Shown in pieces: positions 3,819-46,493 of a stretch of 64,000 bases of DNA (position 1 is its first letter; each line of letters opens with the position of its first letter). The notes below the pieces were generated by a model that was not told the DNA's origin, did not search any database, and saw nothing but the letters and a program-made list of their open reading frames with translations. The position numbers and the translations under genes were made by a program. Source of the DNA: Eledone cirrhosa (lineage: Eukaryota); the NCBI GenBank assembly GCA_964016885.1, contig OZ024740.1:409510001-409574000 (forward strand), written 5' to 3'.

Positions 3819-4612
3819 TATATTTCTTTAGGTCGTTTTGGAAGCCTCAACAACGCAGATGGGTAAATCTCCGGGTAACAAGATCCGGTGGTGGAGAGAT
3901 GTAAGTGAATGTAGGTTGAGATGTGTAGCGTGTAGAAGAGTGTAGGAAAGAGCGTAAAGGATAATAAAAACACGAGATAGAGTTACCTTGGGAGAGATTT
4001 AATTGTCCCTATATATTTCTGATTCACATCCATCAACTGGGGAGGGGGTCCGGGGGAGGGGGGAGAAAGGTTGTCTGTCGGAAAGGTGCGAAACGTGTCC
4101 TCCGCTGTTCGTTGTTTTGAATATCTGAGGTATTCAGCAGAGCGCGCGTGCGCGTGAAATGGGGTCGGTCAATCCAACAGGGCAGATAATACAATGGACT
4201 GACAGCTAACGCCACCCCACTCCCACAATTGAAAGAACTATTTCGGCCGCCGACCTCTGCTTGACCGACCCCATTTCACGCGCACGCGCGCTCTGCTGAA
4301 TACCTCAGATATTCAAAACAACGAACAGCGGAAGACACGTTTCGCACCTTTCCGACAGACCCCCCCCCCCCCGGACTCCCCCCCCCCAGTTGATGGATGC
4401 GAAATCCGAAATATAGGGACAATTAAATCACTCCAAAGGTAACTCTATCTCATGTTATATTATTATCCTTTACGCTCTTTCCTACATTCTTCTACACGCT
4501 ACACATTTCAACCTACATTCACTTACATCTCTCTCTCCACCACCGGATCTTGTTACCCGGAGATTTACCCATCTGCATTGTTGAGGCCTCCAAAACGACC
4601 TAAAGAAATATA
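3819..4612. repeat. Long inverted repeat / fold-back element (arms 3819-4172 and 4261-4612, 88-bp spacer)
   Basis: The arms are high-identity reverse complements over ~350 bp. Confidence 0.95.
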
Positions 4613-4684
4613 CCTTATTATTCCACAATGCTTCAAGCAAACTTCAATACTCTCTTATATTATATATTTTTAATTTTTACTATA

Positions 4685-4868
4685 TAATTGTTTCTACTTT
4701 TGGCACCAGGCCAGCAATTATCCCAGTGCATTAATGGTACTTTATTTTATCGACCCCGTAAGGATGAAAGGCAAAGTTAACCTCGGCGGGATTTGAACTC
4801 AGATCATAAAGGGAGGTAACTCTATGCTTCAAAGCATGGCGCCCGACCCTCTACCGATACTGCCAATC
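4685..4868 (-). mobile_element. Nin-domain tRNA SINE
   Basis: Reverse complement of the SINE consensus including A and B boxes. Confidence 0.92.
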
Positions 4869-6487
4869 ATAATATGTATTAATATGTATCATTTTATATT
4901 TAATATACTATTATATCATGTCTACAGCCCCCACCCCCTAGGCCCCAGCGCTCCCTGGACCTTCTCAATCCCCCCTCGGGGTGGGGTGGGGTCTGTAGCA
5001 TCCACTTTGAGAACCTCTGTCTTTGTGGTATTACAGTAAGTAGGTTGTATGTTGTAGTATTAGTATCGTTATAATTATTATCATTGAATCTAGTATCAAT
5101 TATAAGAAAGATTCTTTTGCTACAGAAGAAAGACAACTAACAACTTGACTTTGTATATATCACAATTGAACTAAAACAACTGTCAAATTACAATTTCATA
5201 TTGGTTTGGGTGTCGCTCATCTTATCAAAGAGACTATTGTTGGTTGAAAAACAGATTGAGAGTAAATACCGAGCACAGGTTTATGTGTGGATGTAGTATT
5301 AGTTCACATGCAATTGATTTCAGGTTTTATTCGTAGACATTTAACTTTCAACAGGTTTTAAAGAGGTTGTTGGGCCCTGAGTCAGCCCTGGGTCAGCCCT
5401 GGTCAAGCAGATCTATGATCAAAGCCATTCCAGTCGTAACAATCCCGTCTTTTTGCATATCTAGACCTACATTGTCAAATATATCCTTTATTCAAGATGG
5501 AATGAGAGTTTTTGACAGTATTTTTTCTAACGGACTGAATGACCACGCAGAGGCTCCCTCGTTAGCGCATCTAAATGGGTAAAGTATACCACTCTGCAGA
5601 GTGGTATACTTTACAACGTACACAAGGTAGGTGTAACAGCAACAGCACAGGGAAACATTTCCCCAATCAAATATTTAATCCATTAAACTTTTATAGAGTT
5701 TTCTTGTCATTTTATGATCAACAATAATACTTAGACTGTGCTTTACTGAGGACGCCGAATAATAATGAAACCTGTTGCCGTTTCCTACTGCATTTCTTAT
5801 TAAACTTTAATTCTCGACCCGTCGTTTTTTTTCCAAAAAGAAAGATTGTTCTCATAACCAAGAGTATGATTTTAATTAATGAAACATTTTTGGCACACTA
5901 CATCAAGTATGTTAGCGTCCATTTCACTACTGAATACAACTCCTCCATCGTAAAATGGCGGCTGTAAAGGAACTCAGAGTTAAACACACCCCATGAATCT
6001 TTAGTATTTGGGAAGAAAGGATGGGGAATGAAAAAGACAGATACAAACATGTGGATCAGGAAAACATTGATTTAGCAATCATAGCCGCCTTAACAGCATT
6101 ACAGGCACTTGGGCACAACAATGCACTAAAGCACCCCTAACATACACAACCACAGCATACATAGATTGATTAACATCGGATCCATACACTTTTCAGTGTA
6201 CCCATACCTTCGACGGTACAACTGTTAGAGTGTCATTATCAATACTCTAAATCAGGGCCTCCAAGAGAAATTTTGCAAGGTGGTACAAGACCCCTTTCGG
6301 GACTGAAGCAGGCAAAGACTTTTCTCAAAATAGATGTTGCATGGTTGATGTAGGGCCTACTTAGCTCTTGGGCCCCGGAATAAAGTACTGGCTGAACCTC
6401 CCACCCCCTCTCGCTTCGTGTGTAGGCATGAGTAGGTTTATATGTATGTTTTGCAGACTCATCCCACCCTTACACCCATTTACACGT

Positions 6488-7010
6488 ACACACACACATG
6501 CGCGCACACACACACACACACACACACACACACACACACACACACACACACACACAGACAGACACACACACACACACACACACACACACATACTCACACA
6601 CACTCATAAATATGAAACTGAGTATACAAAGCAACTCTCACTAACCCTCTACTAATACTACTACCTCCACCACCACTATTACTACTACTGCTGCTGCTGC
6701 TACTACTACTACTTCTACTACTACTACTACTACTACTACTACTACTACTACTACTACTACTACTCTTACAATGTCTTTTAATCTCTTCTATTACCTTCAA
6801 CCATATTGTTCTCCCTCTCCCCTCTCACTCCCACAGAACCTCTCTCTCTAGCTCTCTCTCGCTCTCTCTCTCTAGCTCTCTCTTTCTCTCTCTCTCTCTC
6901 TAGCTCTCTCTATAGCTCTCTCTATAGCTCTCTCTATAGCTCTCTCTTTCTCTCTAGCTCTCTCTCTCCCTAACTCTCTCTCTCTCTAGCTCTCTCTCCC
7001 TCTCTGTCTC
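6488..7010. repeat. Compound microsatellites (CA)n, (CTA)n and (CT)n/(TAGCTC)
   Basis: Direct inspection. Confidence 0.95.
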
Positions 7011-7189
7011 CACTCAGTCACCAATCAAAGATTCTACAATGGACCCATTAGGAGATCATTAAACCTGCTAACAGCCAAAATCTTAAAATCACACACTTCC
7101 TTCTTAATTTAGTGGGGTGGATACATTGTCTGAAGAGAGGAAGTGGTGTTTATCGAAAGTAAAGTTTGTAAGAGACTAAACAACACCAA

Positions 7190-7462
7190 AGGGCTAAATT
7201 GGCTTATTGGGATGAATGCGGTATTCATTCTACCTGAGTTCTCAGTTGAAATCCCGCTGAGGTTAGCCTTGCCTTTCAACCTTTCGAAGTCGATATAAAA
7301 AAGGCGGCAAATTGGCAGAGTCGTAGGACGTCGGATAGAATGCTTTACGGTATTCATCCCACCTCTTTGCGCTCCCTGAGTTCAAATCCGGCCGTGGTCA
7401 ACTTTGCCTTTCATCCTTTCGTTGTCGATAATAAGAAGTACCAGTCCAGTACTGGGGTCGAT
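7190..7462 (+). mobile_element. Two tandem, diverged Nin-domain SINE copies (~7190-7300 and ~7303-7462)
   Basis: Each has CTGAGTTC and GCCTTTCA.CCTTTCG..GTCGATA; the second has a GGCGGCAAATTGGCAGAGTCG head. Confidence 0.75.
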
Positions 7463-7938
7463 TTTTTCCTCTATAGAAAAAAATCGGCTGTGTTCAGACC
7501 TGGATAGGGTTGGGCTCTGCCAGGTTTAGAAGTACCCTAGACATGCCGTATAACGGTGCCTCTCCGACTCCACAAGGAGTTATGGGATCGTTATCCTTTT
7601 TTTTTTTTATTAAAAAAAAAGTACCAGTCCAGAAAAAAAAGTACCAGTCGATTCTTCCTCTGTATCTCTTTATCAATTCTCTACCATTTACTCTCCTAGA
7701 GACCTAGAGAAAGGATGGTCTCTACGTATGTCACTACGGATCTAAAAACAGAAAACACCATCACTCTGTCAATATAATTCTTCAGCAGACATCATGCTTC
7801 CTTCTAGCAATAATTTTTGATTCCTTGAGTTCCAATGAGTTATATGAGGTTTCGAGAGGTTGTACAACTTAAGCAAACAGAATAATACAGAGGACAGTAT
7901 ATCTGGAAACATCGTGGACACGGATCTTGCCAATAACA

Positions 7939-45027: not shown

Positions 45028-45087
45028 GTCCAATTCCATTCGTCGCAACACTGATTCTCTTTTTTTCTGTGATATATAAATATATAT

Positions 45088-45243
45088 ATGTGTGTGTGTG
45101 TGTGTGTGTGTGTGTGTGTGTGTGTGTGTGTGTGTGTGTGTGTGTGTGTGTGTGTGTGTGTGTGTGTGTGTGTGTGTGTGTGTGTGTGTGTGTGCGTGCG
45201 TGCGTGCGTGTGTGTATATATATATATATATATATATATATAT
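45088..45243. repeat. (TG)n(TA)n microsatellite
   Basis: Direct inspection. Confidence 0.97.
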
Positions 45244-46038
45244 AAAACAGAATATCTGTATGTCTGTCTGTCCGTTTACCTAAAACTCGAGAACCACCCG
45301 ATTTTTTTTCAAACTTTACACATGCAATACTTATGGTTGTGTGAGTGTTTTGAGCAAAAAATATTTCAAATTTCGACCGCATTAGGCGAAAAACCGTATA
45401 TTTTAGGCTTTAAATGCTTTTTTGAAACATAACGGAATAGTCCAGGCGATTTCTTCAAAATTTGCATTACTTATGTTGTTTAAAGTGTTTTGAGCAAAAG
45501 GATTTTCTCATTGTTTGCCCCAGTGACCGCATTAGGTGAAAACCCGAATTTTTGAAGCATTTTGGTTGCGTTAGGGCCTGTAACTCGAGAAGTACCCAAC
45601 CGATTTTTTTAAAACTTTGCATATGCATTACTTATGTGTCACACATTTTCTTGACTGAAAAAGATTTCAAATTTATTCCCGGGGACCGCATTGTTTAGCA
45701 TTTTGGTTGCGTTAGGGTCACCACTGCAGTCACACATTCTTACTGCTCTATAACTATTGCTTTCATTGTACCATAGCACAACAAATACATATTCGGTTTT
45801 TCGAATGCCTTTTTACTTAACCCTATCGTCTTGGCTTTCGTGGGTTGAACATTTTACTCTCAGGCACCCAATTAAGTTAAACCCTTGGTAATCTACGACG
45901 AACTTTTTTATAAGCACACAATGTAGACACCATCCCCAGGCCGAGGTATTCCGTACTTCTCTGTACTGCTTCAGAAAGGAGGAACAAACATGCCAATCGA
46001 TGTTTAGAATCCCGAGCAACGCCGGGCCATTCTGCTAG
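45232..46038 (+). mobile_element. Non-autonomous Helitron
   Basis: 3' end CCCGAGCAACGCCGGG hairpin then CTAG|T; 5' TATATAAAA...TGTCTGTCTGTCC; internal direct repeats AACTCGAGAA..CCGATTTTTT at ~45283 and ~45582. Confidence 0.8.
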
Positions 46039-46191
46039 TATATATATATATATATATATATATATATATATATATATTAATAAAAGGAATTCCAACTTTA
46101 TCTGATTTACTCGTTTTATTTACAATCCTTTAAAATTTATAATGGTATTAGAATGAAAAGTATGGTAGAATATTAAATGTTAAATGTTAAT

Positions 46192-46230
46192 TGAACAAGT
46201 ACTTACATGCTTTCGCAATCTTCAGGTTCA
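46192..46230 (-). ncRNA. Minimal hammerhead-like motif, GAAA->GUAA variant (left arm)
   Basis: UGAAC CUGAAGA U UGC GAAA GCA U GUAA G-UA-C UU GUUCA. Confidence 0.65.
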
Positions 46231-46294
46231 TATTCTGTGGTGACAGTCAAGTTTGCAATTTTCAACTGTCAAACTTGACTGTCACCACAGAATA

Positions 46295-46333
46295 TGAACT
46301 TGAAGATTGCGAAAGCATGTAAGTACTTGTTCA
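46295..46333 (+). ncRNA. Minimal hammerhead-like motif, degenerate (UUGAAGA, GUAA; right arm)
   Basis: Mirror copy of 46192-46230 with an additional C3U change. Confidence 0.55.
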
Positions 46334-46493
46334 ATTAACACTTAATATTTAATATTCTATCATACTATTTCATTCTAATACCATTATAAATTTTAAAGGA
46401 TTGTAAATAAAACGAGTAAATCAGACAAAGTTGGAATTTCTTTTATTAATATAATCTTCTATACACAATCATACACATCCGTGTATATTTATT

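Follow-up and report, generated by a model that had tools for sequence, protein, structure and literature searches.

Endonuclease-positive Penelope-like elements (EN+ PLEs) have been described with an inverted pseudo-long terminal repeat (pLTR) or a 5'-truncated inverted copy that carries a tail on one side only, as set out for Penelope of Adineta vaga (PMC3846280) and in Fig. 2 of PMC8557442, the latter naming the formation of tandem and inverted PLE insertions as an open question. Dual hammerhead motifs, 100-700 bp apart on opposite strands, are described for Schistosoma (Cervera and de la Pena 2014, PMC4209133), and retrozymes have been presented as PLE derivatives (PMC7229834; bioRxiv 10.64898/2026.07.22.740005). 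Here we compare these systems with 64,000 nucleotides of the Eledone cirrhosa genome (GCA_964016885.1, contig OZ024740.1, forward strand, positions 409,510,001 to 409,574,000; "the window" denotes this whole stretch, in whose coordinates features are given), which holds two PLEs together with short palindromic loci (fold-backs), most of them bearing hammerhead motifs. We consider it probable (roughly 70%) that the palindromes are head-to-head, 5'-truncated 3' ends of EN+ PLEs inserted in (TA)n, with both cut strands having primed on one element RNA.

Self-alignment of the window after simple-repeat masking yields head-to-head palindromes at 3824-4607 (family A), 44756-45075 (family B) and 46078-46448 (family C), with arms that are 91-96% alike. 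An initial annotation of the window had listed these loci (3.8, 44.8 and 46.1 kb) as pure head-to-head palindromes with a hammerhead in each arm. Their places and polarity are borne out and motifs do occur in both arms, but the palindromes are asymmetric, with a tail of 36-90 nt on one arm, and no canonical hammerhead core is present in either arm at 3.8 or 46.1 kb. A fourth palindrome, absent from that annotation, was found at 19.3 kb (self-alignment span 19295-19404). All six two-armed insertions in the window combine one tailed with one tail-less end. The fold-backs of families A, E, B and C, which have no single strand, are as follows.

3819-4660 (both strands): family A fold-back, with a tail-less left arm 3819-4172 (minus sense) and a tailed right arm 4172-4660 (plus sense); hammerhead-like motif with the family-wide CAGUUGA core at 4039 (minus) and 4387 (plus).
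19206-19408 (both strands): family E fold-back, with a tailed left arm and a tail-less right arm, each containing the hammerhead 3' half only.
44693-45076 (both strands): family B fold-back, with a tailed left arm (tail clipped, adjoining the family H end) and a tail-less right arm; canonical hammerheads with a long loop II at 44892 (minus) and 44942 (plus).
46078-46488 (both strands): family C fold-back, with a tail-less left arm and a tailed right arm; hammerheads at 46225 (minus) and 46300 (plus), with an identical rare core change in both.

A long-read fold-back artefact was considered for the window palindromes and rejected, as the arms are 4-9% different and the ends asymmetric. The 3.8-kb palindrome is flanked by same-orientation pieces (3682-3788 and 4689-4868; 107 bp in common, 94%) of a repeat resembling short interspersed nuclear elements (SINEs), ten pieces of which occur within the window.

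Genome searches were run per family, with 40 candidates scored and 20-25 loci fetched per search; first-look candidates for five families numbered 2846, 2101, 880, 3522 and 2801. Upstream of family A in other copies we found reverse transcriptase (RT) and GIY-YIG-type coding sequence, on the same strand in 36 and the opposite strand in 5 of 51 long pieces. Family C is preceded by a Neptune-like endonuclease (PLE coding on the same strand in three and the opposite strand in one of eight pieces) and family B by a Hydra-like endonuclease end in one of eight pieces. A search for the open reading frame (ORF) of family B that used its upstream 1.3 kb as query found no RT. Each family shows two kinds of 3' end, one bearing the 36-90 nt tail and one lacking it, both entering (TA)n, and a bimodal distribution of 3' ends was seen in families A, B, C, D, E, P1 and P2. 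The three palindromes of the initial annotation are recognised from these comparisons as 3' ends of abundant PLE families. The proposed link of the arms to PLEs was thus recovered for A, C and, at one locus, B; family E shares the anatomy of the other fold-back families and lacks such a link. Contigs from four sequencing runs (non-RNA or unlabelled) contain family C and one contig spans a fold centre; the run with the best match possibly derives from the very sample that was assembled.

Hammerheads were sought with a type I descriptor modelled on PMC4209133, which was widened after the 44.8-kb and 19.6-kb motifs were known. Counted with the descriptor and family evidence, the window holds 11 hammerhead or hammerhead-like motifs from eight families, six of them with a canonical core, in line with the approximately 11 motifs from at least seven families first reported. 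Six motifs tied to element ends have the canonical core (plus strand, 23672 and 44942; minus strand, 19628, 24342, 28904 and 44892) and five an altered core (plus, 4387, 44533 and 46300; minus, 4039 and 46225). Zero-mismatch matches scoring at least 10 number eight in the window versus none in each of six shuffles; two of the eight (7130, plus; 42647, minus) lie without a PLE end and were discounted. One-mismatch matches, taken by themselves, do not exceed chance (5-12 in a shuffle) and were assigned on family evidence, and an Rfam search of the window did not find the hammerhead, returning chance miRNA-like matches only. At family A loci (L002-L025) CAGUUGA replaces CUGANGA in 20 matches and CGGUUGA is seen in three more, with the stems and the palindromic loop 3 intact.

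To place these loci in a genomic context we sampled contigs C1-C10 at even spacing with 140 stretches of 10 kb (1.4 Mb of the 3.0-Gb assembly), counting non-redundant fold-backs with arms of at least 40 bp and a spacer of at most 400 bp. The sample contains 163 fold-backs covering 54.4 kb (3.9%): 75 belong to PLE or hammerhead families, 32 are TA-flush and unassigned, 8 pair SINE-like repeats and the remaining 48 are of other kinds. In this genome such hairpins are genuine and occur very frequently, although three palindromes of 99.9-100% identity in the sample (L257, L286 and L308) could be long-read artefacts. One end is flush with (TA)n, with (TA)n shortly beyond the other, in 59 of the 163 compared to 1.3% of random intervals. 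Strict hammerheads number 151 versus 8-9 in three shuffles, and the wider descriptor gives 183 versus 25-31. Their density is 1.12 per kb in arms compared to 0.08-0.10 outside, an 11- to 15-fold enrichment, with 138 of the 163 fold-backs having no complete hammerhead in the arms. Where an arm does contain one, hammerheads point outward in 24 of 25 fold-backs, and the lone exception belongs to a neighbouring fold-back in which it too is outward. A polarity control gave agreement between E arms in all but one of 113 comparisons, whereas pairs of the SINE-like repeat split 9 to 11. A lack of hammerhead enrichment or polarity bias in genomic palindromes, or arms unrelated to any PLE, had been named as findings that would speak against the initial annotation; enrichment, polarity bias and PLE-linked arms were found.

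The most stringent regularity concerns the ends. Across five families, adjacent opposite-strand pairs are head-to-head in 111 cases and tail-to-tail in 11 (duplicate loci L008, L019 and L121 dropped, the window B and C palindromes counted twice). A tailed end is combined with a tail-less one in 92 of the 96 classifiable head-to-head pairs (50% expected, p = 4e-23; 15 of the 111 were unclassifiable) and in 23 of 23 pairs of the random sample; many of the non-random loci came from queries that themselves held such a structure. The longer arm is the tailed one in 23 pairs and the tail-less one in 23, with both equal in 46. Arms resemble each other more than they resemble their family: the arm-to-arm distance is the smaller in 45 of 48 E pairs (0.038 versus 0.098) and in 22 of 25 C pairs. 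Furthermore, 23 rare variants (one counted twice) are common to both arms compared to approximately one expected by chance on a hand estimate, and these include the core change of both 46.1-kb hammerheads. Arm likeness and shared rare variants point to one template or to later conversion.

Two primings are favoured because either arm can be the longer, the ends are paired, the arms are alike and a lizard PLE protein cuts and extends both strands in vitro, with two internal start sites defining a tail and the hammerhead dispensable, as described in the relevant sections of PMC11167929. In one event, both cut target strands of (TA)n would serve as primers for reverse transcription of a single element RNA, one strand starting at the tail end and its partner at an inner site 36-90 nt upstream. 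Each cDNA would stop early or reach the RNA 5' end and run off, after which the two cDNAs would be joined. In families C and E the commonest stop would be the start of the pLTR-promoted transcript, leaving stubs that are short and of almost constant length. The hammerhead would be a pLTR passenger, predicted to be base-paired away in a read-through hairpin, and the hairpins dead-end by-products that form double-stranded RNA (dsRNA) wherever host transcription crosses them. The initial annotation's single PLE mechanism for the whole series is supported to the extent that arms as PLE 3' ends, polarity, enrichment and end pairing all agree with it; its notion of a new system is not, the architecture being published.

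The longer arm starts -5 to +4 from an initiator-like motif in 30 of the 36 E pairs and 5 of the 7 C pairs that were unselected, and a TATA-like box lies approximately 30 nt upstream of that motif at the C and E fold hot spots. Both motifs were identified by their consensus. These hot spots suggest run-off at the transcript start. At one E locus (L204:3061-3461) the hot spot and its TATA- and initiator-like motifs lie inside the 40-nt hammerhead loop II, hence a transcript from there would lack the first half of the ribozyme.

Several observations weigh against priming by both cut strands on one PLE RNA. Four of the 96 pairs break the tail rule, and conversion between arms after insertion could also make them alike. 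The C and E transcription starts are deduced solely from motifs, and the E hot spot is likewise compatible with a splice acceptor; in A and B the fold points scatter without a hot spot. The link of family B to a PLE ORF is a single locus, and upstream of 11 long family E pieces no ORF was found, two distant matches belonging to other families. Finally, in the relevant part of PMC11167929 the strands do not differ in start site in vitro, which does not account for the strict end pairing.

The strict pairing and the matching arms would also be accounted for if the tail-primed cDNA folded back on itself and was copied, with the endonuclease trimming the second arm at an inner TA-rich site. For rotifer PLEs, self-priming has been suggested (PMC3846280), and resolution by the endonuclease was put forward to explain the tail (PMC8557442). 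However, a tail-less arm made in this way could never reach further 5' than the tailed one, yet it does in 23 of the 46 unequal pairs, and in PLE-1 it is longer by approximately 3 kb. We thus consider snap-back copying improbable.

A separate question is whether the dsRNA has consequences. The 44.8-kb locus is predicted to fold into one long hairpin with the hammerhead paired away (-266 kcal/mol, z = -34). An approximation of the dsRNA-potential measure of PMC5625713, applied to 50-bp windows of the sample, marked 1467 of 33,600 (4.4%), consisting of 667 in simple repeats, 592 in fold-backs and 208 in dispersed pairs. The value published for O. bimaculoides is one tenth of this share, although species, assembly and code differ and the figures are not comparable. 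Of the 800 non-microsatellite windows with near-perfect inverted partners, 592 lie in fold-backs, 332 of these in TA-flush ones. The relevant sections of PMC5625713 report unusually high dsRNA potential and hyper-editing in octopus, whose repeats were omitted from the repeat analysis, as well as a hyper-edited lizard Penelope and a palindromic frog Harbinger, both shown with RNA data. It is conceivable, though we hold it only tentatively, that two-site copying of one RNA with run-off generated on the order of 150,000-230,000 octopod hairpins (scaled up from counts of 75-107 in 1.4 Mb), which would form the main non-microsatellite, near-perfect dsRNA behind hyper-editing. The fold-backs offer a concrete candidate source of octopus dsRNA, as a lead.

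Retention or use of these hairpins as substrates for self-silencing or editing, through endogenous small interfering RNAs (siRNAs) or ADAR, is doubtful. The supply is large (75 of 163 sampled fold-backs of PLE or hammerhead families and 32 TA-flush), and precedent exists in the lizard Penelope and in Drosophila, where RNA data in PMC3681739, as far as its Penelope results extend, show inverted copies to be a source of matching siRNAs. On the other hand, A>G changes are not in excess on the sense strand of genomic copies (169 A>G versus 129 T>C, as base counts predict), the arms decay, with 305 arm-private changes, and the insertion mechanism alone explains the number of hairpins. Among arm-shared variants (A, B, C, E and P2), sense T>C makes up 7 of 23 compared to 22 of the 305 changes private to one arm (p = 0.002, uncorrected for the 12 classes); an edited antisense template or noise between lineages could explain this, and the contexts are mixed.

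Fold centres differ from pair to pair in all 24 unselected E pairs, in 18 of the 20 selected ones and in all 18 C pairs, each hairpin thus being a separate insertion that does not propagate as a unit; the recurrence of identical spacers suggested as a sign of self-propagation is not the rule in these pairs. Despite thousands of first-look candidates per family and E stubs of nearly fixed length, we regard it as very unlikely that the palindromes are self-propagating non-autonomous elements, be it a palindromic SINE-like PLE parasite or a miniature inverted-repeat transposable element, given the distinct centres, the asymmetric ends and arms that run on into PLE ORFs at other loci; such elements, expected to show ends that are symmetric and a centre that recurs, were rejected.

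The remaining elements of interest in the window are as follows.

19590-19628 (minus): family F minimal hammerhead with a canonical core, from a lower-copy family.
20641-20843 (minus): inverted, tailed 3'-end copy of PLE-1.
20750-23925 (plus): PLE-1, 5'-truncated and Neptune-like; RT-linker-GIY-YIG open frame 20750-23377; hammerhead at 23672; tail-less 3' end at (TA)n.
24093-28338 (minus): PLE-2, full-length and Neptune-like; direct pLTRs 28338-28174 and 24258-24093; first ATG at 28256; hammerhead at 24342.
28797-29322 (both strands): family D retrozyme fold-back; left arm (minus sense) with hammerhead at 28904, predicted cut after 28874, an apparent internal deletion and a tail-less end; right arm 29050-29322 (plus sense) with a tailed end.
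43338-44692 (plus): family H, Hydra-like endonuclease C-terminus and 3' untranslated region; hammerhead at 44533 with one core change.

PLE-1 was annotated as truncated with an inverted tail, and the inverted 3'-end copy is confirmed by a 100% identical inverted repeat (20700-20843/23782-23925). The reported full length and direct repeats of PLE-2 (minus strand, 28298-24549; repeats 24093-24226/28174-28306, 98.5%) also hold; a single in-frame stop (26511-26513) makes it full-length and not intact. The PLE-2 family is young, with copies 96-99% alike. The two proteins share 66% identity, and in each a single ORF carries YVDD and YIGET motifs, corresponding to an RT and, at the C terminus, a GIY-YIG endonuclease. 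Pfam at E <= 0.001 missed both proteins, with weak sub-threshold matches to RVT_1 (both) and GIY-YIG (PLE-2), and a PDB sequence search gave a weak RT match only. The closest named homologue of PLE-1 is a predicted Octopus vulgaris protein (68% identity), homologues being mostly unnamed. An alignment read by eye places a CX2-5CxxC linker between RT and endonuclease and a CCHH in the endonuclease of both, features that define Neptune in the clade descriptions of PMC8557442. Direct or inverted pLTRs and a type I hammerhead near the 3' end (a structure match only) identify both as EN+ PLEs. Their hammerheads (23672-23729 and 24342-24286) have a long loop III containing TATA-like sequence. A genome search with the PLE-1 3' end gave no match, common words being skipped by the search, and this family was counted in fetched loci only. 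Family H also forms fold-backs at other loci; the CxxC and CxH flanking endonuclease E and N that characterise Hydra were seen at 43338-43901 (H) and at L034 (B), and no copy of B or H among the fetched loci reaches an RT, the domain in which the clade has RWK and DKT motifs. The family F hammerhead lies in a low-copy element (19430-20470) with a separate 76-bp inverted pair (20180-20254/20390-20465).

The 28.8-kb element is identified from its repeat structure as a tandem non-LTR retrozyme. Family D consists of head-to-tail monomers of 446-465 bp with one type I hammerhead each (L080, L084), although one L080 unit failed the descriptor; the monomers lack an ORF and are too short for an RT. 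The element had been described as having an inverted tail that starts at the ribozyme cut site. The right arm does begin 2-4 nt past the predicted cut, but the tail proves to be a second retrozyme arm of ~270 nt. After filtering against microsatellite matches, 26 unselected and 51 selected family D pieces were kept. Twelve of the 51, from loci selected with the window's own junction, start at the cut site compared to none of the 26, and a general start at this site is thus not supported; family E has no peak there, and 3 of 12 in family C lie near it. Tandem arrays of a 310-bp hammerhead unit occur elsewhere (L308:2199-6244, L176 and L217), one being a 4-kb palindrome with 100% identical arms.

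The window further contains 468 copies of a 35-bp satellite, a TGTGTC-type array of 10 kb and tandem repeats with units of 42 bp and 81 bp (47599-64000, 8294-18652, 1-170 and 34228-34470). Other retrotransposon fragments (38902-41802, 42027-42927, 32157-32861 and 36071-38200) include an AP-type endonuclease (Pfam PF03372), C-termini resembling long interspersed nuclear elements (by eye) and repeated 3' ends. A perfect 36-bp palindrome (5579-5614) carries no family assignment.

When set beside the EN+ PLEs of PMC3846280 and PMC8557442, as far as their accounts of architecture go, the Eledone elements share the head-to-head polarity, the inverted truncated copy, the tail at one end, microsatellite targets and a partial tandem pLTR overlapping the ORF start. 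They differ in their longer tails (36-90 versus 30-40 nt), the dominance of ORF-less stubs, a density of ~50-75 per Mb and the strict one-tail, one-no-tail pairing, counted here. By motif, PLE-1 and PLE-2 resemble the Neptune clade of PMC8557442 (CX2-5CxxC linker, (TA)n insertion), and B and H, assigned on the endonuclease part only, the Hydra clade (CxxC...E...N...CxH, (TA)n insertion). The hammerheads agree with the minimal metazoan PLE motifs presented in PMC4209133 in being type I, with an extra base after A9, a short palindromic loop 3 and the U3-A8 variant, but depart from them, on sequence evidence, in a 40-60 nt loop II (B, E and H), a long loop III (PLE-1 and PLE-2) and the CAGUUGA core (A). 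Family D matches the metazoan non-LTR retrozymes of PMC7229834 in its 446-465 bp monomers, yet shows PLE-type paired ends and fold-backs, unlike the retrozymes covered there and in bioRxiv 10.64898/2026.07.22.740005. The dsRNA consequence proposed is that of the fly (PMC3681739) and of the lizard and frog (PMC5625713), in the cases those reports detail, and is here predicted from DNA alone. Within the mostly open-access literature consulted, supplements aside, we found no count of end pairing and no tie between octopus hyper-editing and PLE fold-backs; supplements of PMC8557442 may already list octopus families. The architecture is thus a published one, and what is new is its scale, the strict end pairing and, in two families, fold points at likely promoter starts.

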